Shown here: one piece after another, positions 3,725 through 27,303 of the stretch
How the letters are laid out: each line of letters opens with the position of its first letter
Position numbering within the stretch: position 1 is the stretch's first letter
The notes under the pieces: model-generated
Seen by the model: the letters and a program-made list of their open reading frames with translations, nothing else
Told to the model about the DNA's origin: nothing
The model's database searches: none
Program-made: the position numbers and the translations under genes
IMG/VR virus record: IMGVR_UViG_2565956729_000013
Span: 1 to 31,698 of that record
Reading direction: 5' to 3' (one strand)
Length of the DNA: 31,698 bases
Source of the DNA: a virus
Taxonomy: Duplodnaviria; Heunggongvirae; Uroviricota; Caudoviricetes

Positions 3725-5593
3725 TTAAACACTCGCCACGTTATACCAGGTGCCATTAATCAGTTTCTGAAGCGGACGGTAATACACGCCGCCGATGTTA
3801 TCTGCCGAATTACTTCCGGTTTCCTGCACATTAATACCGGATAACCCGTGGCCTGAAGGTGAGCGAAATGTCCAGGATACCTGGTTACCTCCCGGGTTGT
3901 AATACATTTCGGAACCATAACGCACATCCTGCACGCCGCCATTTCGCTGCTGATAACGGGCATCGAAATTTCCATAGTTTGATGGGGTCATCTGTCCGTT
4001 TACAGCGAATGTGATACTGCCATCGGTATTTCTCTGGCTGTAAAAATGCCAGCCGGAATCATCACCAAGCTCTGCAACTACAGGTCGGGATGAATTACCC
4101 CATAAATTAAACGTTGCGTTTTTCGTGGAGTTGTTGTCGCTGGATAACGTGAATTTTTTAGCATTTCCGGCCTGAATATTTTTTAACGCTATTGCCACAC
4201 CATTCTGGAAACGAAATACATGCTGTCCATTCGCATAAACATCCAGAATGCCGTCGCCGTTTTGTTTTATACCTGTATCGTTATCCCCGAAAGCAATTGA
4301 GTTTCCGCCCAGCGCGTTCTGAACGCCGATACCCAGCGCACCATTGACCTGAGAACCGCCGCCAACAGACACTTTATGCGACATGGATATTTCACCCGTC
4401 CGCAGATTAATAGTGAACGGTCGAAGTGGACCAATATCGCCATTCTCGCCCTGACCTTCACTGGTAGGGATAAGGTGCAGGCACTCTTCCGAACGACGAA
4501 AAATCAGACCAAAGGCTTCGTTGAAAATCCTCAGCGCATTAACACCACGGATTTTCAGTTCCCCGGTCATGGTGTCGCCGTCACGCTCAACAGCGCCTTT
4601 TGCCTTATCCATTGCGGCTTTTACTGCCTTTGATGTGGCGGCGCGGTCTTCTGCGTCGCTGTCGGTGGAGTTGCTGTACTGCGCAAAGCCTTTCTCCTTC
4701 AGTGTTGCGTCCGGATGACGGCGGGATTTTTCGTGCTCTGCCAGTGCATTGCTTTGTTCTTCATCGGGCGTCTGTGGACGTAAATCCTGTAAGCCTTCTG
4801 ATGTCAGTTTCGCAAGTGGCGCGACAAAGTGTCGGAAGCCGTTACCGTCTGTATAGGACGCATGTTCCTGGCGGGCGCAGAACGTAAAAACGGTATTCCA
4901 TTCGCCGGTAACAAATCCCTGCCAGCTTGCATCAATCCAAATGGTATCCCCGACCGCAGCCGGCAGGCTGTAAGGTTCGCGCAGACTGACGCGCAGACCT
5001 CCCACATAACCCACGCCGGCGGCAACAGTAGCGGTACCATCCTGATAGCTGACCTGAAAACCATCCCCCAGAAAAGCGGCTTCACCGTAGTGATCAAACG
5101 CCAGCAGCCGGCGGGCCTCATCCATTCCTGCAAGGCGTGCAGTGAAATCAATCTGCCAGACATCAGCACTGACATCGATATGCATTGCTGCGGCTGCGCC
5201 GTCAAACTCCATGGAAAATGTGCGGATCAGGTTGTTTCCCTGTACGCCGTTCGCTGTTTTAATTTTTTGCTGACGAGGTGTGTGTGCAATCATGCAGAGC
5301 ACGCCGCTTTCTTCGTTCAGCAGACCGATCCAGTTGTATTCGAAGTCGCCGACTGTCGTGTCCAGAATGATGGAAAACGCGGTCGCGTTCGGCGACAGGA
5401 GGCCGTACTGGGTGACCGGCGCACGATACTGAATCATGGATTCATCAGGGAGTATCTCATCGCGGGGGATCTCTGCGGATTCATCCTGTCCCGGAATATA
5501 TGCAAAAACAAATGTATCCGGGCGCGCAGGTTTTCCACTGATGAGCTGATTCGCACACCAGTGTTCGTACTGTTCAGTAATAATCGTGCTCAT
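3725..5593 (-). CDS. tail fibre protein (P2 H-like)
   Basis: 622 aa; conserved fibre N-terminal domain plus Gly-rich repetitive C-terminal region; start overlaps upstream stop (ATGA). Confidence 0.85.
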   Translation of the reverse strand: MSTIITEQYEHWCANQLISGKPARPDTFVFAYIPGQDESAEIPRDEILPDESMIQYRAPVTQYGLLSPNATAFSIILDTTVGDFEYNWIGLLNEESGVLCMIAHTPRQQKIKTANGVQGNNLIRTFSMEFDGAAAAMHIDVSADVWQIDFTARLAGMDEARRLLAFDHYGEAAFLGDGFQVSYQDGTATVAAGVGYVGGLRVSLREPYSLPAAVGDTIWIDASWQGFVTGEWNTVFTFCARQEHASYTDGNGFRHFVAPLAKLTSEGLQDLRPQTPDEEQSNALAEHEKSRRHPDATLKEKGFAQYSNSTDSDAEDRAATSKAVKAAMDKAKGAVERDGDTMTGELKIRGVNALRIFNEAFGLIFRRSEECLHLIPTSEGQGENGDIGPLRPFTINLRTGEISMSHKVSVGGGSQVNGALGIGVQNALGGNSIAFGDNDTGIKQNGDGILDVYANGQHVFRFQNGVAIALKNIQAGNAKKFTLSSDNNSTKNATFNLWGNSSRPVVAELGDDSGWHFYSQRNTDGSITFAVNGQMTPSNYGNFDARYQQRNGGVQDVRYGSEMYYNPGGNQVSWTFRSPSGHGLSGINVQETGSNSADNIGGVYYRPLQKLINGTWYNVASV

Positions 5594-17378: not shown

Positions 17379-19166
17379 ATGGCGTACTCTGATGAAGTGA
17401 TTGCTGCAGCAAAATCACTCTATCTGAAAAGGCACACCCCAAAAGAAATACAAAAGAAGCTCGGACTGAACAGCCCGCGAATTGTTTATTACTGGGCGAC
17501 AAAGTTTGAGTGGTACACACAGCTTAATACTGAGGGCGTGGAGGATGTCATCGCCCGGCGTCTCGCTGTACTGGCGGAGCGTGACCATAAAACCCAGGAA
17601 GAGCACGATGAACTCGATCGCCTGATTGGCCACCACGTCAAACTGATGTCGGTCAGGAACAAGCACACAGAACGAATGGCCGAGATAGAACGAATGGGGG
17701 CTGATATTCCCCGGTCTGGCCGTTATGCAAAAGAAGAGCGCGGAGAAAAAGACGCGGATAAGAAAGAGCGTCGTCGTAAAGCTAATGATGTGTCAGGGCT
17801 GACAGCAGAGAGTTTTGAGCCGTTTACCAAAAAACTGTTCGCTTATCAGTTGCACCTGCGTGAAAACAAATTCCGTCGTGTACGCAACCTGCTTAAATCG
17901 CGCCAGATTGGGGCGACATATTACTTCGCGTTTGAGGCATTTGAAGGTGCGGTATTAACCGGCGACACACAGATATTTTTATCGGCATCAAAACGTCAGG
18001 CCGAAGTGTTCCGCACCTATATCGTTAAGATTGCACAGACGGAATTTGGCATTCCCATTAAAGGCAACCCGGTTAAGTTAAGTAATCTGGCTGAACTGTA
18101 TTTTCTGGCGACCAACAGTAACACGGCGCAGTCAAACAGCGGCCACCTGTACATTGACGAATATCTGTGGATCCCCGGCTTTCGTCGCCTCAATGAAGTG
18201 GCGTCCGGTATGGCCACCCACTCGCACTGGCGCATTACCTACTTCTCCACGCCGTCAACCAAAACCCATCAGGGCTATCCGTTCTGGTCCGGCGATGAAT
18301 GGCGCAAAGGCGATCCGAAACGAAAAGGGGTTGAGTTTCCGTCCTTTAATGAACTGCGCGATGGCGGGCGTGAATGCCCGGATGGCCAGTGGCGCTATGT
18401 GGTTACGCTGGAAGATGCCATTGCCGGCGGCTTTAACCTTGCTGACATCAACGAGCTGCGCGAGCGGTACAACGAAACAGCGTTCAATATGCTGTTTATG
18501 TGTGTGTTTGTGGATGACAAAGAGAGCGTCTTTAAATTCGATGACCTCGTGCGCTGTGGCGTTGATGTCAGTACGTGGGAGGATTTTCACCCGGAAGATG
18601 CCATGCCATTTGGTAACCGTGAGGTGTGGGGTGGCTTTGACCCTGCGCGCTCCGGCGATAACGCCACGTTTGTGGTGCTGGCACCGCCGCTGGTTGCGGC
18701 AGAACGATTCCGCGTGCTGGAAAAACACCACTGGCGCAGTATGTCATTCCAGTTTATGGCAGAGCGTATCCGCAGCATTAAGGCGCGCTATAACATGACA
18801 TTTATCGGCATTGACGTCACCGGTCTTGGCTACGGTGTCTTTGAGCTGGTTCAGGGATTTGCCCGCCGTGAAACAGTGGCCATTCATTACAGCGTGGAAT
18901 CCAAAAACCGCCTGGTGATGAAGATGCTGGATCTGATTTACGCCAACCGTATTGAGTGGGATGAAGAAGCCACAGATATTCCGGCATCATTTCTGGCTAT
19001 CCGTCAGGAATCCACTAACAGTGGCAATAAAGTCACTTTTACCGCCGAACGTAGCGAAGAAACCGGGCACGCTGACATCTTCTTTGCCATAGCTCATGCC
19101 GCAAGTAATGAACCCCTGAACTATAAGCACAAGCGCAAATCAACATGGATCCTGTCAGATGAGTAA
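17379..19166 (+). CDS. terminase large (ATPase) subunit (P2 P-like)
   Basis: 595 aa, size and N-terminus typical of P2 gpP; followed by overlapping portal gene. Confidence 0.9.
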   Translation: MAYSDEVIAAAKSLYLKRHTPKEIQKKLGLNSPRIVYYWATKFEWYTQLNTEGVEDVIARRLAVLAERDHKTQEEHDELDRLIGHHVKLMSVRNKHTERMAEIERMGADIPRSGRYAKEERGEKDADKKERRRKANDVSGLTAESFEPFTKKLFAYQLHLRENKFRRVRNLLKSRQIGATYYFAFEAFEGAVLTGDTQIFLSASKRQAEVFRTYIVKIAQTEFGIPIKGNPVKLSNLAELYFLATNSNTAQSNSGHLYIDEYLWIPGFRRLNEVASGMATHSHWRITYFSTPSTKTHQGYPFWSGDEWRKGDPKRKGVEFPSFNELRDGGRECPDGQWRYVVTLEDAIAGGFNLADINELRERYNETAFNMLFMCVFVDDKESVFKFDDLVRCGVDVSTWEDFHPEDAMPFGNREVWGGFDPARSGDNATFVVLAPPLVAAERFRVLEKHHWRSMSFQFMAERIRSIKARYNMTFIGIDVTGLGYGVFELVQGFARRETVAIHYSVESKNRLVMKMLDLIYANRIEWDEEATDIPASFLAIRQESTNSGNKVTFTAERSEETGHADIFFAIAHAASNEPLNYKHKRKSTWILSDE

Positions 19167-20193
19167 AAAGAAAAAATACCCCGTGCTACACGATGGCGTG
19201 GCAAAAAAAACAGCCAGCAAAATGGCGTTTATTGAATTTGGTGACCCGGAACCAGTCGCTGCATGGGGCTGTTATTACGGCTCGCTCTGGGATGGCTATA
19301 ACGGCTGGTACACGCCGCCCATTGAGCGCATGGATCTCGCCATGTTGTCCAATATCGCACCGTATCACGGCGCGGTATTGCGTGCGCGCGTCAATATGAT
19401 CATGCAGGGTTTTCGGGGCGGTGGGGGTATGACACACGCAGCCATGGCGGCAGCGGTGACCAATCTGCTGATATTCGGGGATATGGGGCTGCTTAAAGTG
19501 CGTAACGGCTTCGGGCGGGTGGTGCGCCTGCATACGTTGCCGTCGCTGTACCTGCGGCGCAACAATGAGGGTGGCACGGTGATTGTGCAGGCGGCACTGG
19601 AAGATCTCGTTTATCCGCCAGGTGAAGTGGTGTTTGTGGCCATTTATGACCCGCAACAGCAGGTTTACGGTGTCCCGGATTATATCCACGGGATGGAATC
19701 AGCCATGCTGAATGTGGATGCCACTCGCTTTCGCCGCAAGTATTACAAGAACGGCGCACATCTTGGTTATATCCTGTATTCCACTGACCCGGACATGGAT
19801 CCCGAGCTCGAGGCGGAATTTCGTAAAAAGATAGAGGCGTCAAAAGGGGCGGGCAATTTTAAATCCATGTTTATCAATATACCAGGTGGAGACAAAGAAG
19901 GCGTTAAGGTGATCCCTATCGGGGATTCAGGCACAAAAGATGAATTCCTGAATATAAAAACCATCAGTGCCCAGGATCAGCTCGTGGCGCACCGTTTTCC
20001 ACCCGGACTTGCCGGCATCATTCCCGCAAATACGGCCGGGTTGGGTGATCCGCTGAAATCCCGTGAGGCCTATTACCGGGATGAGGTTATTCCGATGCGT
20101 CGCCTGATTATGGAGGGGATCAACAGCGACCCGGATATCCGGAGACTGGGGCAGGTGGAATTTATTCTTGAATTTAATGAAGCCACGGAGTGA
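19159..20193 (+). CDS. portal protein (P2 Q-like)
   Basis: 344 aa, same length as P2 gpQ; ATG overlaps the last codons of the terminase gene. Confidence 0.9.
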   Translation: MSKKKKYPVLHDGVAKKTASKMAFIEFGDPEPVAAWGCYYGSLWDGYNGWYTPPIERMDLAMLSNIAPYHGAVLRARVNMIMQGFRGGGGMTHAAMAAAVTNLLIFGDMGLLKVRNGFGRVVRLHTLPSLYLRRNNEGGTVIVQAALEDLVYPPGEVVFVAIYDPQQQVYGVPDYIHGMESAMLNVDATRFRRKYYKNGAHLGYILYSTDPDMDPELEAEFRKKIEASKGAGNFKSMFINIPGGDKEGVKVIPIGDSGTKDEFLNIKTISAQDQLVAHRFPPGLAGIIPANTAGLGDPLKSREAYYRDEVIPMRRLIMEGINSDPDIRRLGQVEFILEFNEATE

Positions 20194-20258
20194 TGTGCGA
20201 CATGGAGAAGGAGCGGGTAAAATCAGCAGCAGTAAAACGTTGTTCCGGGAGGTGGAAA

Positions 20259-20516
20259 ATGCGCAGACAGAAAGCGCGGTGTCATTGCTGTGGTGCTCGT
20301 GCAGTGATTGAGAAAACAGCCTGGAAAACCGATCGGTTTGCTGATGTGTATTACCGTTGCACGCGTCTTGAGTGTGGGCATACCTGGGTGATGAACCTGA
20401 CCTACTCGCACACACTGGTGCCCAGTGGACTGGAGAATGGCGTGTTAAAGCTGTTGATTGAACGGATGCGCCCGGAAGAAAAACAAATGGCTCTGGAGTT
20501 ATTGCAGGTCGGATAG
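20259..20516 (+). CDS. ogr: Ogr/Delta-family zinc-finger late transcription activator
   Basis: ATG at 20259 preceded by GGGAGGTGG RBS; 85 aa with CxxC...CxxxxC pattern (CHCCGARA ... RCTRLECGH). Confidence 0.7.
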   Translation: MRRQKARCHCCGARAVIEKTAWKTDRFADVYYRCTRLECGHTWVMNLTYSHTLVPSGLENGVLKLLIERMRPEEKQMALELLQVG

Positions 20517-20536
20517 CTGACGCGCTTCGCTTGTCC

Positions 20537-20591
20537 AACCCGGAACGGGCGCACAAAGAATTTGCGCACCCGTTCCGGGTTTTCTTATTTA
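20537..20591 (+). terminator. rho-independent terminator after ogr
   Basis: Near-perfect 16-18 bp GC-rich stem (AACCCGGAACGGGCGCAC / GCGCACCCGTTCCGGGTT) followed by TTTTCTTATTT. Confidence 0.7.
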
Positions 20592-20944
20592 ATGGCAGAC
20601 AACTGATAATTTGTGTCTTCCTGCAGGCTGGTTAAAGAAATATTATCCAGTGCAGCCAGAATAACGTGCTGTGTATATAATCCGGAACATTTCATTGCCC
20701 GGACAATATCACCAACACTGTAATTTTCTTTTGTCGGGATATATCCACCACCCGGGCCGCGTGTGGCTTTTACCAGGCTACTTTCCCGTAAATATCTGAA
20801 TATTTGCTCCAGATATGACAGTGACACGGTTTCTTTGCTTAATTGCCGGAGCGAGATTGGCTTTCCGGTGTACTGTTTCACAAATTTAATCATTACCATA
20901 ACTGCAACTGATGCACGCTGGCTTCCGGAATTATCTTTCATCAT
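20585..20944 (-). CDS. Rrf2-family transcriptional regulator
   Basis: Signature ISLSYLEQIFRYLRESSLVKATRGPGGGY; ~119 aa from the MMKDNSG start; lacks the IscR-type Cys cluster; AT-rich DNA. Confidence 0.8.
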   Translation of the reverse strand: MMKDNSGSQRASVAVMVMIKFVKQYTGKPISLRQLSKETVSLSYLEQIFRYLRESSLVKATRGPGGGYIPTKENYSVGDIVRAMKCSGLYTQHVILAALDNISLTSLQEDTNYQLSAIK

Positions 20945-20955
20945 GATTACTTCCA

Positions 20956-21243
20956 TTAATGGCATAAATTGATGGAGCGGGTCAGTGAATAAAGAGGCAA
21001 TACATTCCATCCCTTAGAGCGCCAGCTGTCTGCAACATCTTTACTTCTTGTTATCGCCGGTATTCCAATAGGATTATTTGCGTGCATCCATGCCACTGGC
21101 TCTGCTTCCAGTGATGCAAGTGCGATTTCCAGTGCGATTAACATATTGTGATCGTCTTCATCAAGACCGAACGGGATGTCTTCGCGCCACGATTTAAACT
21201 CTGTGATTTTACGTTGTAACCATTCTTTGGTAATGGTGGACAT
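20956..21243 (-). CDS. hypothetical protein (95 aa)
   Basis: ATG at 21243 (MSTITKEWLQ...) with AGGAG RBS; track start at 21261 is GTG; AT-rich accessory region. Confidence 0.5.
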   Translation of the reverse strand: MSTITKEWLQRKITEFKSWREDIPFGLDEDDHNMLIALEIALASLEAEPVAWMHANNPIGIPAITRSKDVADSWRSKGWNVLPLYSLTRSINLCH

Positions 21244-21257
21244 AGTTACTCCTGTTT

Positions 21258-21572
21258 TCACTTCGGGAAAAACGCCTGAATATTCTTTTTCACCTGCTGC
21301 ATATGGGGGGCGTTGTCTGCTGCTGGTTGCGCCGGTTTTTCAGGCTGTACTGGTAGCGGTGGCATCCGTATTTCGTCTTCTGACCATTCTGCCAGCGAAT
21401 ACGCCAACGCGGGGGTGCGTTTTATAAGAGCCAGTCCGGCCAGAAAAGCCGCGCGTTGTGCGCGGCTGCGTTCGGAGGCTGGCAGGCTGTCGAGGTAACT
21501 GCACGCCTCCCGTTCGCTCTTGACGACGGCGGGCTTCAGATAGAAACTTATTCGTCTGGTTGGTGTCGTCAT
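21258..21572 (-). CDS. parR: ParR-like centromere-binding protein
   Basis: 104 aa; DSLPASERSRAQRAAFLAGLAL resembles recalled R1 ParR DSIPQGERSRLNRAALTAGLAL; AAGGAG RBS; directly downstream of parM. Confidence 0.7.
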   Translation of the reverse strand: MTTPTRRISFYLKPAVVKSEREACSYLDSLPASERSRAQRAAFLAGLALIKRTPALAYSLAEWSEDEIRMPPLPVQPEKPAQPAADNAPHMQQVKKNIQAFFPK

Positions 21573-21576
21573 TGAT

Positions 21577-22536
21577 TTACTCCTTGTCCATTGCGTACAG
21601 CCCATTAACCAGAGCAAACTGTGGCACCCCGTCCGCGATGAAAGTCGCATTAACTCCGCAGGCTTCGCGGATAGCGGGTGCCACAATCTTCGCTCCTCCA
21701 CCTACAACCATCACCCGCCCGTAACCCGAAAAACCCGCCAGCGCGCGGATCACGCGTTGTTTCAGTGTTTCCTCCTTTTCACGAATAACTGCCATCAGGC
21801 TGGCGTAATGTGCGTTATTGTGGATGTGCTGGCGCAGCCAGGCTTCATCGTGGCGATGTTCGATAATGGTATTAGCGATGTGGTGACTGGTACGCATACC
21901 GTTGGTGGCCATCACCGACAGCACGGCATCGGCCATCAGAGAAACGCCTACGTGTGGATCGCAAAACACCTGGCTGATACCTGCCAGTTGCCCCTGAACC
22001 TTTGCCACATCCAGCGTGGTTCCGCCCAAATCCACAATCAGCAGGGATTCAAACGGACTCATGTCAGCCAGCGCTTTAAAGCCAGCCGGAATGGATTCAG
22101 GCATAACCCGCACGTTACGGATAGTGAATGCCTCACCGTTCTGGTACTCCACCGGGCGCATAACGTTCGCTTTTTTGCGGTTGATGTTGGCCATGTCCGG
22201 CTGTGCGTTTGTGTCGAAATACTCGCTCAGTGGCAGGGTGACAACCACATCCACCTCCTGAGGCGTGATGCCTGATTTGACCAGCGCGTGATGAATGGCA
22301 ATGACATTCACATCGCTGTACTGGTATTGCGTGTCGGTCGTCTGGACAAAGCGATCGCTGACCGGATCAAAACCATAGCGCACGCCATCAAGCATGTAGT
22401 TCGCGGGCTGCGTGCCACCGAACGGCGCAGACCATTCCGACTTGAAGCTGTTCGGGCTGATGGCGTTGCGGCGTTCGCCGTTCTCAGTCCATGCCAGTTT
22501 GATGTTGGTGGAGCCGTCGTCGATACAAATTTTCAT
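21577..22536 (-). CDS. parM: ParM/StbA actin-like segregation ATPase
   Basis: 319 aa; motifs IDDGSTNIKLAW, YSDVNVIAIHHAL, VMPESIPAGF, LIVDLGGTTLD, GYGRVMVVGGGA match recalled plasmid R1 ParM along its full length. Confidence 0.85.
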   Translation of the reverse strand: MKICIDDGSTNIKLAWTENGERRNAISPNSFKSEWSAPFGGTQPANYMLDGVRYGFDPVSDRFVQTTDTQYQYSDVNVIAIHHALVKSGITPQEVDVVVTLPLSEYFDTNAQPDMANINRKKANVMRPVEYQNGEAFTIRNVRVMPESIPAGFKALADMSPFESLLIVDLGGTTLDVAKVQGQLAGISQVFCDPHVGVSLMADAVLSVMATNGMRTSHHIANTIIEHRHDEAWLRQHIHNNAHYASLMAVIREKEETLKQRVIRALAGFSGYGRVMVVGGGAKIVAPAIREACGVNATFIADGVPQFALVNGLYAMDKE

Positions 22537-22564
22537 GTCGATTTTCCTTATGTTGATTAATTAA

Positions 22565-22679
22565 TCGTTTACGGGATTCTGAAATCCCGTTCTTGCCTGT
22601 TTTGTACGCGCCTCATATTTCGCCGCGTGTTTTTTGCTCATTTACGGGATTTGTGAATCCCGTTTTTGTCTGTTTTTTG
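22565..22679. repeat. parC-like centromere/promoter repeats upstream of parM
   Basis: Two ~40-bp direct repeats (22565..22604 and 22638..22679), each with a dyad ACGGGATT-N4-AATCCCGT (22570..22589; 22643..22662), then a T-rich CTGTTTTGT segment. Confidence 0.55.
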
Positions 22680-25435
22680 TTTCCACTGGTTAGTCCACCC
22701 CGCAGCAGCTCTGCTTTGCGGCGGACGCGTTCAGTGGTTTCACTGATTCTCTGTGCGTGCTCTGCGTCACGGATGGCACGCAGCATGTCAGAAAGCACGG
22801 TAACGGGTGTTTTCATGGTGTTCTGGTCCTGCTGAAGTGTGGATGCCAGGCGTGCGGCGGCTTCGGGGTCTGATGCCCTCAGCTGTGCCAGATAGCTGGC
22901 GACCGGGTTATGACGGATCTCCGTGCTGCTTACGCCGTGATTACGGCTCAGGCGCTGCCAGAGCTGCGTGATTCGGCTGTCCGGGCGGGTATCCGGTTTG
23001 CGTACAATTTCAAATCCCTGCGGTGCAATGATGCTGCCGTCAACGTACAGACTGCCGCCCCGTAACAGGTGCTGCATCTGCTGTTCACCGATATGCAGGC
23101 CAAGGGATTCAGCAGACTCCCGCCATTCTTTAGCGAGTAATTCGTGGTTATCAGGCAAAGGCCGCTGCTGTTTGCGGCTCTGTGTCCAGCTCTGCATTTC
23201 ATCACTGCTGTTTTTTGCCTGTTTGTCACGCAGCGAACGCATCAGCGCCCGGCGTTCGTGCCGTTTCAGTGAGCGCATCCATTCATTCACGTCAACGCTG
23301 TCAGGAAGCTGCGGCCACGGTGCTGGCCGTTCTTCCGGCTGTTCTGTCCCGTTGTTGTCCGTTTCCTGTACACGGGGACAGTTATTGCCACGAGTCCAAG
23401 GGGCGGCAGGGCCGCCCTGAAGGTCAAAACCATTTTCGTGGGCGTTGTCTTCCGGTTCTGGTTTACGTCTTACCAGCTTCCAGTTATCCGGATGCGTGCA
23501 CACACGGGAGGATTCCCCGATGAGTGGTGACCAGATCCCGTAAATCTGTACGCTCTGTTCGCCGTAATCATTCAGCTCATCTGCGAGGTCGTAGGCGGTG
23601 CGAATCAGGTAGTCTTTGCGTGGAACAAGTACGCCGCCCTGTTTCTCAATGTAGGTGGCAAAACACCCGGCATCAGCGGCAGCGAGTACCGCATCCATTG
23701 CATCATCCTTCAGCCGTTGTGGGCCTTCCGGGTTGCGTGCCATCTGGCTGGCAAGGCGGCGCAGTTCACGCCACACCTGACGGGAGGGGATGCCAAAGAA
23801 CTGGAACTGGCGGACCCGGTGAAGGCGCGCCCAGCCGATGGCGCGTTCCACACTCTCGGCCATTGATTTTCCGGTTTCGTGGTCAACGCGTGGCTTGCCC
23901 GTTTTCGGGTCGATGCCATCCACGGCGCGGCTGTCCAGGTTCTTTCCGATGTAGGTGGCGATGTAGCTGGTTGGCGTGCCTTTTGAGCCGTCGACGTACT
24001 CCGCCTTAAAACGCGGAGTTATGTCATCGCCCAGCTCGTGGCGGTCTTCCTGAATGGCAATATCGCAGACGTGGGACACGATGGTTTCAATCTCGTCAGG
24101 ATGAGCAAAAACCATCATGTGCCAGTGCACCGTGCCGTCATGATGAGGCTCCACCGTGCGGATGCCATACCAGCGCAGGCCGTCGCGGTTCAGTTTTTTG
24201 CGGACCGCCGCAAAAAACGTGTTAACCAGGTAATCGCTGGAGTCGCGCATAGTGGCCCCGTTCCATTTGGGATTCGGATGACCGTTCTCCGTTGTTGCGT
24301 GGTATTTTGACGGGCAGGTGACAGTCAGAAACACCGCTCTGTCGCCACGGGCTTCGGCCAGAAGTTCCAGCCCCTTCATGGTGGCCATCATTTCTGCCTT
24401 ACGGTGAACCGGGTTACTTACTCCCGCGTAATACACTGTATCGAGATCAATCGTGAACCCGTCTTCGTTTTCCAGCATGAAACTTTTCAGGAAATCGCGT
24501 GTTTTCTCGCGCTGTGCGCGAAACTCGCTTAACGCGTTCTGGCTCAGATAGGGTGATGTTTTTCTGGAAACCAGACAGGCGGCGCGGAGTTGTTCTTCTC
24601 TCCACTCGCAACGTAACAGCCACAGTTTGCGTTTCCACCAGTCCGCACAGGTCAGGCGAAGGATTGCGCCCGGCAGCAGCTCCGTGTCTGGTTCGTTCTT
24701 CCGGTCTTTGTCTGTTGTCAGTGCGTCATAATACGGCGGCACGGTGTGCAGATGTAACGCCATGCGGGCCAGCATCTGATACACCTTCAGCGTTATATCC
24801 ATAGTCAGCTCGCCATCGGTCGCGCCAAAGCCATCGCAGAGCTTTTCGAAGGTGCTGCTGAACATCGCCGCCGTCATGGTGGCCAGCGTCTGTATCTGGT
24901 GCTTGTTGAGCTGTGGCAGGTACAGCAAATCGTCCAGGCGTTCACGTCCGGCAAGGGAGCGATAACCCGGAGTCAGCCAGTGACGGTCGGTGCAGTCCAG
25001 ACGTTCGAATATTTTGCGCAGGGTTCCGTGCGCGTAACGTTCAGCCTGCCAGTTCTTTTTTCCTTTCCGGCGATCGGCTTCCTGTTTTTTGCGCAGGAAG
25101 GAGAGGTGGCGAATAAGCGGATCGCGCAGATAGGACGGCAGCAGGCGCAGCGAGGCCATGGCTTCATCCACCGCGCCGCGTGCCTGTCTTCTGGCGTCTC
25201 CTGCCAGCGTGATGGTTTTGTCCTGTTTTTCCTGTGCGTCCAGGCTTTTATTAATCAGGTTGCCCAGCGGCGTGGCGGAGAACGCCGCATCAGCCATTTC
25301 CTGGCGGCGCTCGTTCTCTGCCCGGTAGGCATCCAGCCAGGAGGAAAGCGCGGATTCAGGAGCGGGGATCCCCGTTCCTTCACGCCCCACTGCGTGGCGC
25401 GGTTGTTGCCAGTCCCTGATGTACTCTGCCGTCAT
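22613..25435 (-). CDS. replication initiation endonuclease (P2 A-like rolling-circle initiator)
   Basis: 940 aa; metal-binding motif HWHMMVF typical of the family; 3' end overlaps the second parC-like repeat. Confidence 0.8.
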   Translation of the reverse strand: MTAEYIRDWQQPRHAVGREGTGIPAPESALSSWLDAYRAENERRQEMADAAFSATPLGNLINKSLDAQEKQDKTITLAGDARRQARGAVDEAMASLRLLPSYLRDPLIRHLSFLRKKQEADRRKGKKNWQAERYAHGTLRKIFERLDCTDRHWLTPGYRSLAGRERLDDLLYLPQLNKHQIQTLATMTAAMFSSTFEKLCDGFGATDGELTMDITLKVYQMLARMALHLHTVPPYYDALTTDKDRKNEPDTELLPGAILRLTCADWWKRKLWLLRCEWREEQLRAACLVSRKTSPYLSQNALSEFRAQREKTRDFLKSFMLENEDGFTIDLDTVYYAGVSNPVHRKAEMMATMKGLELLAEARGDRAVFLTVTCPSKYHATTENGHPNPKWNGATMRDSSDYLVNTFFAAVRKKLNRDGLRWYGIRTVEPHHDGTVHWHMMVFAHPDEIETIVSHVCDIAIQEDRHELGDDITPRFKAEYVDGSKGTPTSYIATYIGKNLDSRAVDGIDPKTGKPRVDHETGKSMAESVERAIGWARLHRVRQFQFFGIPSRQVWRELRRLASQMARNPEGPQRLKDDAMDAVLAAADAGCFATYIEKQGGVLVPRKDYLIRTAYDLADELNDYGEQSVQIYGIWSPLIGESSRVCTHPDNWKLVRRKPEPEDNAHENGFDLQGGPAAPWTRGNNCPRVQETDNNGTEQPEERPAPWPQLPDSVDVNEWMRSLKRHERRALMRSLRDKQAKNSSDEMQSWTQSRKQQRPLPDNHELLAKEWRESAESLGLHIGEQQMQHLLRGGSLYVDGSIIAPQGFEIVRKPDTRPDSRITQLWQRLSRNHGVSSTEIRHNPVASYLAQLRASDPEAAARLASTLQQDQNTMKTPVTVLSDMLRAIRDAEHAQRISETTERVRRKAELLRGGLTSGNKKQTKTGFTNPVNEQKTRGEI

Positions 25436-25441
25436 AGTGAT

Positions 25442-25807
25442 TTACTTCGTCATGCCATTCAGGGTGTCGCGGCAGACTGTAGCCAGCCGCTGAATTTCCA
25501 GCACGGTGTCTTCTGTGTCGGCATGGCGATGTGTGATGCGGATGCTGTCGGCAATCACATCGACGATTGCAGAGGATGGGCGCTGGTAAATGCCAATAAC
25601 GGACGGGGTGCCACCTTCAATGCGGTAAAGCCTGTAATTTCCCTCGTGGCTGTCAATCATGTAGCGACCGTCAATAACAATCTTTCCGTCAGCGAGCTGC
25701 GGTACAGGCAGGGATTTCAGGTACATGTCATAACGTTCACGCACGCGAACGGCAAGATCACGCTCTGTGTTGAGCAGGTATTCAAGAAAGTCGTTGGCGA
25801 GAATCAT
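25442..25807 (-). CDS. hypothetical protein (121 aa)
   Basis: AGAGGA RBS; stop 7 nt before the A start. Confidence 0.55.
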   Translation of the reverse strand: MILANDFLEYLLNTERDLAVRVRERYDMYLKSLPVPQLADGKIVIDGRYMIDSHEGNYRLYRIEGGTPSVIGIYQRPSSAIVDVIADSIRITHRHADTEDTVLEIQRLATVCRDTLNGMTK

Positions 25808-25879
25808 TGCGGCAATCCTCTGGTTACTGATGTGCGAAGGCCTCCCGCCGCAAGGTGCAGGAAGGGCCCGGAACAGGAA

Positions 25880-26110
25880 TTAATGGAGTTTGTTTTGCTG
25901 CTGGATGAGATCCTGAAGAGACAGGAGGTCTTCCGCCAGATAGCTGAATACAGCGGCGCAGTAGTCGGCTGAAATAGTGCTGTTGAGTCTGTGCAATGTG
26001 TTGGATTGCATGATAAAGGCGATGTGTGCGGCGCGGGTGAGTCTGCGATCGATTTCAGTCTGGATGTGACGACGCTCCGCGATAGCGCGGTGCTGTTTGC
26101 GGTTTGCCAT
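25880..26110 (-). CDS. hypothetical protein (76 aa)
   Basis: AAGAGG RBS upstream of ATG at 26110; first gene after a 368-bp non-coding gap. Confidence 0.5.
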   Translation of the reverse strand: MANRKQHRAIAERRHIQTEIDRRLTRAAHIAFIMQSNTLHRLNSTISADYCAAVFSYLAEDLLSLQDLIQQQNKLH

Positions 26111-26447
26111 GGTGTGGCCTCTTTGGTTGTAAGTTTTGAAAACTCACCATCCAGAGGTGGAAAACTCGGGGTGGTGAGACGTACAGGGTTTCCACAACCG
26201 GCAACTACAGAACCCGGCCCGACCGAAGTCGGCCCCATACGCCCCACCATAATTCGTGTGCGAAAAAGACGTGGCGATACGGTACGCACAAAAAAACCGC
26301 TGGCGCGGTTGTGCGCTTTGGTTGTCAGCGGGGTGGAAATCCCGGCACCCGTTTTATGAGGTGCAGCGGAAATGTAACCTGACTGATTGCGGCATGGCAA
26401 GTGGTTTTTTTGTGAGAACGGCATACTAAAAAAATCCTGATACTGCT

Positions 26448-26478: not shown

Positions 26479-27303
26479 TTACTTCACCGGAACAAACGGA
26501 ACAGCGGTGTTGCTGGTCATGTATTGCGGCAGCGTGCCGTTCCATTTGTTGATTGCTTCCAGCTCCATAACGCCGGGATTCTGGCGCAGAGCTTCACCGC
26601 GTAAACGAATGGCGTCGGCTTCAGCCTGGGCTTTTGTGCGAATGGCATCAGCCTGTCCGGCAGCTTCTGCGCGCAACATGTTGGCTTCTGCTTCACGTTG
26701 CTTGACTTCCTGTTCGCGTTGCAGGGTTTTCTGGTTTGCCGTGACTTTGGCATTAATGCTGTCGATAACGGTTGACGGGTACTCCGGCTTACCCACATAT
26801 GAGAGGCTCATTACCTGAATACCGATGGGTGTCATTTCCTCCTGAATGTCTTTAAGAGCTGCATCCAGTAGTTCAGATTTCCCTCCGTCGATAAATTTGT
26901 CGGTGGTCATTTTGCTGGCCAGTCGGTTGAGTGCATCGGCGATCTTCTGGCGCAGGTCAGTGTCGGTAATGTCATCCACGCCTTTGCGGTAGGTCTGAAA
27001 CACTGTAGTAACTTTGGATGGATCAACCTTGTAGGCCACACCGATGTGATAGCCGATGGTTGTGCCGTCACTCATCTGGAAGCTGAACGGCTCATCGTAG
27101 GCCTTCATTTGTTTGAAGGTCGGGAAGATGTAAACCTCGGTATTCCAGCCAGTCCAGTAGCGGCCAACGCCAACCACTTCGCCGACGCCTTTGTCGTCGC
27201 CCAGTTTGTTGACTTTGATGCCCACATTACCTGGCTCAACGCGATCGCAACCAACCAGGAAGATGGCGGCAAAAAGCGGGATAACCGGAAAGAGTTTTTT
27301 CAT
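26479..27303 (-). CDS. SPFH/band-7 (stomatin/prohibitin-like) lipoprotein
   Basis: 274 aa; signal peptide with lipobox LVGC; SPFH-like core then Ala/Glu/Arg-rich coiled-coil tail; start overlaps upstream stop (ATGA). Confidence 0.8.
   Translation of the reverse strand: MKKLFPVIPLFAAIFLVGCDRVEPGNVGIKVNKLGDDKGVGEVVGVGRYWTGWNTEVYIFPTFKQMKAYDEPFSFQMSDGTTIGYHIGVAYKVDPSKVTTVFQTYRKGVDDITDTDLRQKIADALNRLASKMTTDKFIDGGKSELLDAALKDIQEEMTPIGIQVMSLSYVGKPEYPSTVIDSINAKVTANQKTLQREQEVKQREAEANMLRAEAAGQADAIRTKAQAEADAIRLRGEALRQNPGVMELEAINKWNGTLPQYMTSNTAVPFVPVK

Follow-up and report, generated by a model that had tools for sequence, protein, structure and literature searches.

At the junction of replication gene A and the partition gene parM of a P2-type prophage lie two similar direct repeats, each enclosing a palindrome, and the question that this locus raises is what function, if any, these repeats serve. 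The locus belongs to a viral DNA stretch of 31,698 nucleotides (Caudoviricetes; IMG/VR record IMGVR_UViG_2565956729_000013), which was analyzed at its full length and is referred to hereafter as the window. An earlier note on this DNA had described the repeats as centromere-like, i.e., as a putative binding site for the partition protein ParR, superimposed on the C-terminus of the A protein and including a promoter. Our analysis supports the first of these proposals: the two repeats are probably parC, the cis-acting site of partition, in a type II ParMRC cassette located between replication gene A and the cos/portal end in a subclade of P2-like temperate phages. The evidence, all of it from sequence comparison, consists of the linkage of the repeats to parM and parR, the presence of an equivalent GGG-N10-CCC pair in distantly related phages, and the co-variation of the repeat type with the N-terminal strand of ParR.

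Two palindromic repeats upstream of parM

A repeat search at this locus reported a single family, namely two 39-nt direct repeats that are 82% identical and whose starts are 73 bp apart. The proximal repeat (22565..22603, minus strand) is intergenic, between A and parM, while the distal repeat (22638..22676, minus strand) lies within the final 21 codons of gene A and is retained along with parM in phages whose A protein is only 31-67% identical. Each repeat includes a perfect palindrome with two 8-nt arms and a 4-nt center (8-N4-8), that is, ACGGGATTCTGAAATCCCGT at 22571-22590 in the proximal repeat and ACGGGATTTGTGAATCCCGT at 22644-22663 in the distal one. Read on the minus strand, these dyads are ACGGGATT-TCAG-AATCCCGT (proximal, 22571..22590) and ACGGGATT-CACA-AATCCCGT (distal, 22644..22663), and their GGG-N10-CCC cores are found 52 and 125 nt, respectively, 5′ of the parM ATG. 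Together the repeats span the region 28-140 nt upstream of this ATG (22536); the proximal repeat ends 28 nt before it, and 15 nt before the AAGGA motif read from the sequence as the parM ribosome-binding site (22545..22549, minus strand). The earlier description of direct repeats of about 40 bp, spaced 73 bp apart directly upstream of the parM ribosome-binding site, each with an inverted pair of arms around four nucleotides, is thus accurate in its coordinates and sequences alike.

No further copy of the dyad exists in the window. When up to three mismatches are allowed, the dyad pattern has a single additional match in the 31.7 kb, at 18039, with three mismatches; the number of matches expected is 0.09, and three matches were reached in none of 100 shuffled sequences. 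The half-site AATCCCGT occurs five times in the window, against 0.94 expected occurrences. The core between the repeats (34 bp, 22604..22637, minus strand) contains the stop codon of A, at 22613-22615, and a GC palindrome, ACGCG-N13-CGCGT, at 22606-22628. A-tracts in the flanks are roughly in phase, with centers at 22675.5, 22665, 22642 and 22632.5. An array of direct iterons was not found at the locus, which contains only the two 20-bp palindromes.

The genes on either side are readily assigned. In Megablast comparisons the window is a P88-like P2-type prophage (Xuanwuvirus, Peduoviridae), with 92-96% identity to P88-like phages from A through the repeats and parM to the middle of parR; on the minus strand the order is A, repeats, parM, parR. 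Replication gene A (25435..22613, minus strand; stop codon TGA at 22615-22613) encodes a protein of 940 residues with a Phage_GPA match (E=2.5e-127). The 319-residue product of parM (21577..22536, minus strand), an actin-like partition ATPase, matches the Pfam families StbA_N (E=1.8e-82) and ParM C-terminal domain (E=3.9e-68), as well as the structures of R1 ParM (PDB 1MWK and others; E=6.6e-92, residues 2-316). The 103-residue ParR, of the StbB family, is encoded by parR (21258..21569, minus strand; Pfam Plasmid_stab_B, E=4.3e-24); its N-terminal strand is TRRISFYLKP and its C-terminal tail NI..FP, it shares 45% identity with R100 StbB across the N-terminal 58 residues, and it gives a weak sequence match to the structure of pB171 ParR (2JD3; E=0.009, residues 6-62). 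The open reading frame (ORF) of parR begins 8 nt past the stop of parM; in the annotation of phage P88, which includes the same 940-residue A protein, ParM and a 103-residue partition protein, this gap is 4 nt. The locus encodes a bona fide R1-family (StbAB) ParMR pair.

The GC-rich palindrome at 22606-22628 is located midway between the two dyads, around the stop codon of A, and renders the segment 22571-22663 pseudo-symmetric. In RNA folding, the two dyads pair with each other around this palindrome. A comparable GC palindrome flanks GATATATGAAG in relatives.

Linkage of the repeats to parM and parR

Inverted repeats are frequent sites of action of rolling-circle initiators, and the origin of P2 is inside gene A. 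It is therefore conceivable that the dyads belong to the replication system, as an origin hairpin or as binding sites for the A nickase, all the more so as the distal dyad is inside the A ORF. Such sites would be inherited with A. In two E. coli prophages, L003 and L004, gene A is 90-94% identical to that of the window at the nucleotide level, over the compared 3′ stretch, but parMR is replaced by other cargo, namely an AAA ATPase and an S8 peptidase in L003, and three hypothetical genes in L004. Homology to the window is lost at about 22700-22725, upstream of the distal repeat, and no dyad was found in either prophage, even with three mismatches allowed. The earlier note had named relatives without parMR that carry the same repeats as evidence against its proposal; the parMR-less relatives compared here do not carry them.

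Conversely, both dyads are retained, together with a ParM that is 96-98% identical, in phages with divergent A proteins, i.e., in L049 (A 31% identical), in L022 (67%) and in L069, which has a different type of A. The point at which homology to the window begins is 22679 for L049 and about 22666 for L069, and the junction between conserved A sequence and the cassette is 25-50 bp upstream of the distal repeat. The exact dyad is found in 120 IMG/VR contigs, 115 of which, L049, L069 and L022 included, hold the same junction. In the remaining five, which lack ParM, the dyad occurs by chance in unrelated contexts, one of them a true terminator. No protein gene other than parM and parR is found with the dyads throughout. 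Because the dyads are absent where A is shared and present where A has diverged, we conclude that the repeats travel with parMR.

A P2-type rolling-circle origin, i.e., the nick site of A, is contradicted by these linkage data and was rejected. Furthermore, another ORF sits between A and the dyads both in L049 and in the Hafnia phage L211, and A proteins from loci without par end before the residues that the repeat encodes. That the dyads serve the replication system is, in our assessment, barely credible.

In the variant prophage L023 (480-3300), about 2.7 kb of opposite-strand genes replace the 3′ end of A and the distal dyad, so that the proximal dyad alone is left, and parM matches in two frames. 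This cassette looks like a decaying one.

Overlap of the distal repeat with gene A

The distal repeat coincides with codons 920-933 of gene A, and its dyad with codons 925-931 (TGFTNPV). This position agrees with the claim that the repeat encodes approximately the last 20 codons of the 940-residue protein. The possibility that the A ORF ends there by error, also raised in the earlier note, is not borne out: the stop is at the identical position in the annotation of phage P88 and in E. coli RefSeq genomes, and since these genomes are independent, the end of the ORF is not a sequencing error.

The C-terminus of A and the putative site had been described as superimposed. They do overlap, but not by design. 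The tail of gene A, comprising about its last 28 codons, is variable and reads into the par cassette; A proteins from loci without par stop 19-25 residues sooner, and their tails are unrelated. The upstream ORF of L049 terminates 57 nt short of the distal dyad, which is thus intergenic. In L069, the upstream ORF stops (TAA) inside the distal dyad, in a different frame, and in the Hafnia phage L211 this dyad is in another ORF and in another frame. That is, the distal site can lie inside whichever ORF happens to adjoin it upstream. Because the distal dyad is intergenic or in other frames and ORFs in other backgrounds, we conclude that the coding overlap is incidental, i.e., a by-product of the cassette abutting A.

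No long ORF covers the distal dyad in L049. A 31-codon ORF with an ATG start (MKRINANTKAKKQTETGFTNPVNEQKTRRDI; L049 6951-7046) runs through the dyad in the frame that the window's A tail uses. This shared frame is probably a coincidence, L069 using another.

A conserved geometry in distant phages

Searches of the contig sets with ParM returned three near-identical loci among genomes and relatives of at least 98% identity among viral contigs, and the ParR protein search returned the E. coli-type family only. More distant relatives were reached by a search for protein homologues of ParM, followed by look-up of the encoding contigs. The relatives with ParM identities of 54-62% are P2-like prophages in which the cassette is located between gpA and the portal gene, in Plesiomonas (L210), Hafnia (L211), Serratia (L213) and an Enterobacter-type lineage (L215, L219). 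In these phages, the cassette has the look of a long-established resident and not of shuffled cargo.

In the Plesiomonas and Hafnia phages, ParM is 62% identical to that of the window and the DNA 5′ of parM cannot be aligned with it. Nevertheless, GGG-N10-CCC occurs twice upstream of the ATG in each case, at -131 and -59 in Plesiomonas and at -128 and -55 in Hafnia, compared with -125 and -52 in the window; the spacing within the pair is 72, 73 and 73 bp, respectively. When each 230-bp upstream region was shuffled 20,000 times with its dinucleotides preserved, such a pair at 71-74 bp arose with a probability of about 5e-5 per lineage.

These observations bear on the possibility that the dyads act as RNA hairpins, either as intrinsic terminators antisense to parM or as stabilizing or processing stem-loops in the A-parM mRNA. 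On the plus strand the distal dyad of the window is indeed terminator-like, as are both dyads on the equivalent strand of L049; the region 22530-22700 folds better than shuffled sequences on both strands (z = -5.5 and -5.0), and the T-rich/A-rich flank belongs to the conserved 39-nt repeat. On the sense strand, however, neither hairpin is followed by a U-run; there is no promoter-like site on either strand of 22300-22900 to feed an antisense transcript, and a separate terminator-like hairpin is already present after late gene Q, at 20568-20580. No Rfam match was obtained, and the common variants among relatives (distal dyad, T7C; proximal dyad, A1G and C18T) are uncompensated, with pairing preserved on different strands. 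In Plesiomonas and Hafnia, moreover, the arms are reduced to 3-4 complementary bases with 10 nt between them, and no T-run follows, yet the GGG-N10-CCC motif, the spacing and the position are kept. Given that these are maintained while the arms and the T-run are lost, the conserved element, as judged from this comparison, is a pair of G/C triplets at fixed geometry, which is the signature of a protein-binding site and not of an RNA hairpin or terminator. We thus regard an RNA-level role of the dyads as very unlikely.

The repeats could also be devoid of function, i.e., a duplication or recombination scar left by insertion of the cassette after A. The proximity of the A/cassette junction, only 25-50 bp upstream of the distal repeat, is compatible with this notion, and so is the diversity of the dyad arms in close relatives, which is no lower than that of synonymous-like sites. 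A scar does not account for the retention of this GGG-N10-CCC pair, equally spaced and equally far from parM, in the phages of Plesiomonas and Hafnia despite their unalignable flanks. Nor does it account for the spacing of the dyads among close relatives, for which we used 71 unique sequences of about 5% divergence, picked via ParM and not via the dyad (an earlier tabulation, on contigs selected by the dyad, was set aside on account of its ascertainment bias); in 69 of these 71 the spacing is 73 bp. On the basis of the linkage and the deep conservation, this explanation was rejected as highly improbable.

Co-variation of the repeat type with ParR

Ribbon-helix-helix proteins read bases with their N-terminal strand. 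Across the lineages compared, the type of repeat upstream of parM co-varies with this strand of ParR. The strands TRRISFYLKP (window and P88), TRRISFYLNP (Plesiomonas) and TRRVSFYLKP (Hafnia) are all found with GGG/CCC dyads. By contrast, NRKISFYLKP (Serratia and Enterobacter-type phages) is found with one pair of inverted arms of 19-20 nt, GGAACGAAATAGAAAAAT and ATTTTTCTATTTCGTTCC, 28 nt apart. This putative parC, upstream of parM (L213 4882-4947; L215 3883-3950; L219), shares the motif TTTTTCTAT with the iterons of IncL/M plasmids. In the latter and in related plasmids the strand is NRKCSFYIYP, and the repeats are T-rich 10-bp direct iterons that contain TTTTTCTAT. In R100, lastly, the strand RRTIAFKLNP is associated with 11-bp AAACCC iterons. 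An Arg-rich strand paired with G/C triplets would be chemically plausible.

The same association is evident within the P88 group, where two families of ParR alleles, 53-64% identical overall, differ in the helices and in a hypervariable linker. The TRRISFYLKP strand is invariant between them, the C-terminal NI..FP tail is conserved, and both families occur with the same dyads.

In the IncL/M plasmid pCTXM360 (L208 1076-1178), two blocks of iterons are also 73 bp apart, start to start, and lie on either side of a good promoter, TTTACA-17-TAATAAT. This identical spacing may stem from a shared geometry or be a coincidence.

Transcription of the cassette

The earlier note had also proposed a promoter within the repeats. 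A simple sigma-70 scan, in which at least 9 of 12 consensus matches were required, detected none on either strand of 22300-22900, nor in L049 6700-7300, and a wider scan of 20100-26000 yielded one unrelated site only; this part of the proposal is therefore not supported. The best candidate found manually, TTCAGA-16-ATTAAT, matches at 8 of 12 positions and overlaps the proximal dyad; it is not conserved in Plesiomonas or Hafnia. Between A and parM there is no terminator-like site on the sense strand, and in every lineage the cassette is oriented as the early operon. In view of this shared orientation, transcription of parMR by read-through from the early operon and A is plausible; alternatively, it may start at a weak promoter that overlaps this dyad.

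Between the proximal dyad and the ribosome-binding site, at 22553..22561 (minus strand), a 9-mer, ATTAATCAA, is (nearly) invariant in 71-85 relatives. It is also found in Plesiomonas (L210, ~4971-4979) and in Hafnia (L211, ~4967-4975), where the flanking DNA has diverged. This 9-mer is possibly part of a weak -10 element, or of the leader.

If ATTAATCAA contains a -10 element, the proximal dyad would be, by manual reading, at the -35 position. This arrangement would suit an operator for a protein other than ParR, such as a host factor or phage regulator that governs the expression of parMR or the read-through from A to parM. Palindromes of the 8-N4-8 kind are typical of many dimeric regulators, and an Rrf2-type regulator is encoded two genes downstream of parR. 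However, the genes past parR, including the Rrf2-like one, are not shared with the P88-like relatives that have the same dyads; as noted above, the constant companions of the dyads are parM and parR, and it is with the N-terminal strand of ParR, over five classes, that the repeat type changes. We therefore consider an operator of this kind unlikely.

A model for the partition complex

How might the repeats function as a parC site? In the model that we favor, ParR, which belongs to the R1/StbB family and is presumably a ribbon-helix-helix protein, would occupy each 20-bp palindrome with two dimers, so that every CGGGAYT half-site is contacted by one of them. The centers of the half-sites are 11-12 bp apart, which would be consistent with an Arc-type dimer-of-dimers geometry, as in the Arc operator. 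The 73-bp spacing corresponds to about 7 helical turns and would place both complexes on the same face of the A-tract-rich DNA. With the conserved C-terminal tail of ParR, the ParR-DNA complex so formed would capture ParM filament ends, and in this way it would move or position the circular phage DNA. This activity might be of use in an episomal phase, as suggested in a passage of PMC9122126; in stabilizing the excised form, by analogy with srpMRC of SXT/R391 (PMC4489591); or in positioning replicating circles, by analogy with AlpAC of prophage CGP3 (PMC4446434).

Several observations weigh against the assignment of the repeats as parC. With two sites only, i.e., four half-sites, compared with ten iterons in R1, an extended ParR scaffold of the classical kind is not obviously possible, and no consensus promoter is found inside the site, unlike in R1 parC. 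In the co-variation of repeat and ParR strand, each class is represented by a handful of lineages. For monomeric ParR, the AlphaFold model is poor (predicted local distance difference test score, 59), with helices at residues 19-28 and 36-51 and no strand, which may be expected of a model that lacks the dimer partner; its quality was too low for a fold search, and taken alone it does not reveal the ribbon-helix-helix fold. Among the close relatives, variation is concentrated at positions 1, 7, 18 and 20 of the dyad, the core CGGGA/TCCCG being nearly fixed, and in P88 itself the distal dyad is imperfect. In the 71 relatives, the nucleotide diversity is 0.049 and 0.064 in the dyad arms, 0.056-0.070 at third codon positions, and 0.063 in the inter-repeat core; recent purifying selection on the arms is thus not detectable in this set, in which a divergence of about 5% confers little power. 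This test is neutral to mildly negative for a parC site and gave way to the comparison across genera, which is the decisive one.

If ParR binding is confirmed, the locus would show that, for an R1-family ParR, two palindromes can take the place of long iteron arrays. The putative cis site is a 112-bp fragment with four defined half-sites, and thus provides a concrete experimental handle. Likewise, the small table of ParR strand classes and repeat types given above may help to annotate parC sites, which genome annotation currently ignores.

Of 5426 complete E. coli genomes, 1389 contain the 351-bp junction of this locus, nearly always in the chromosome. Hence about a quarter of complete E. coli genomes, O157:H7 strains included, harbor a prophage-borne parMR cassette. 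This proportion agrees with a passage of Rousset et al. (PMC9122126), according to which about a quarter of the E. coli P2-like phages have a putative plasmid partitioning system in the hotspot between gpA and gpQ.

A broader proposition is that the two-palindrome ParMRC is an old, functional part of the life cycle of an integrating P2-like subclade (in Escherichia, Plesiomonas, Hafnia, Serratia and Enterobacter), and not shuffled plasmid cargo. We regard this as possible, albeit doubtful. The cassette could then provide a plasmid-like episomal phase or, by analogy with CGP3 AlpAC, a mechanism to position, or to keep apart, the monomeric circles that serve P2-type phages for replication and packaging. 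An actin-like cytoskeletal step would then be part of the biology of a very common family of E. coli prophages, found in about a quarter of complete genomes.

Comparison with known partition systems

The same protein families are found in the ParMRC system (StbAB) of plasmids R1 and R100, in which the site is also directly 5′ of parM, in A-tract-rich DNA. In R1, parC consists of two iteron blocks around a 39-bp core (55+39+55 bp) and is strongly curved (PMC2241845). The window has a similar organization, with two repeat blocks flanking a core of comparable size (39+34+39 bp), and its right half-site, AA(T/A)CCC, resembles the R100 iteron AAACCC. There are, however, clear differences. R1 features ten 11-bp direct iterons (2 x 5), whereas the window has two 20-bp palindromes with four half-sites; direct-iteron arrays are also seen in R100 and in IncL/M plasmids. 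The core of R1 parC contains an autoregulated promoter, while that of the window has no consensus promoter. In addition, the distal block of the window overlaps a coding region, and the host replicon is an integrating phage rather than a plasmid.

A parC made of palindromes has a precedent in the chromosomal ParMRC system of Clostridium botulinum, where three palindromic repeats are bound by ParR in gel shifts (PMC12270681). The similarity to the window resides in the small number of palindromic repeats and in the chromosomal location. The C. botulinum proteins belong to an unrelated, Gram-positive ParM/ParR lineage, no phage context is described, and the site follows cParR, according to a figure legend, rather than preceding parM (PMC12270681).

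The phage role of such a cassette may be best illustrated, by functional analogy, by AlpAC of the Corynebacterium glutamicum prophage CGP3. There, AlpA binds the alpS repeats upstream of its own actin-like operon, and this adaptor links circular phage DNA to prophage-encoded actin-like filaments (PMC4446434, PMC5539076). AlpC, the actin-like protein, and AlpA, the adaptor, are nonetheless of different families, the adaptor gene comes first, and the phage is of an unrelated type. Another type II-like cassette on a normally integrated element is srpMRC of SXT/R391, where srpC, upstream of srpM, is bound by SrpR and the system stabilizes the excised circular form (PMC4489591). In that case, SrpR is without homology to ParR, the promoter is SetCD-dependent, and the element is conjugative and not a phage (PMC4489591).

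The location of the cassette is that of the gpA-gpQ cargo hotspot of P2-like phages, as presented in the relevant passages of PMC9122126; the passages of that article found by term search mention no cis-acting site. Our literature search found no description of a parC for the ParMR of P2-like phages, the cassette itself alone being mentioned. What was already known is therefore the presence of parMR in the P2-like hotspot; what is new is a putative centromere of two palindromes, with neither an iteron array nor a consensus promoter.

Surroundings of the cassette

The gene order of the whole window is that of an integrated P2-type phage, namely int, cox, the early genes, A and the cargo, followed by Q and P on the other strand, and by O-N-M-L. 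An E. coli entry listed as a circular plasmid in PLSDB, NZ_CP148288.1 (L207; 34,461 bp), represents a complete genome of a P88-like phage, in which int, cox, A, parM and parR are present along with every virion gene. Possibly this is the phage in an episomal or excised state, although the case is anecdotal.

The DNA homology to P88-like phages breaks inside parR, near 21420, which makes parR a mosaic gene. The cargo beyond it (20585-21261) is unlike that of P88 and consists of a 101-residue ORF without a family match and a 141-residue Rrf2-type winged-helix regulator. A PADLOC search gave no match to a defense system for parM, parR or these two downstream ORFs. The terminator-like hairpin mentioned above, ACCCGTTCCGGGT followed by a T-run (20568-20580, plus strand), is about 375 nt past the end of the portal gene Q (20193) and is probably the end of the late P-Q transcript. 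Finally, the early region 5′ of A includes genes for an Ash-family protein (25804-26424) and for an SPFH/Band 7 protein (26479-27303); the second of these is unusual cargo for the early operon of a P2-type phage.

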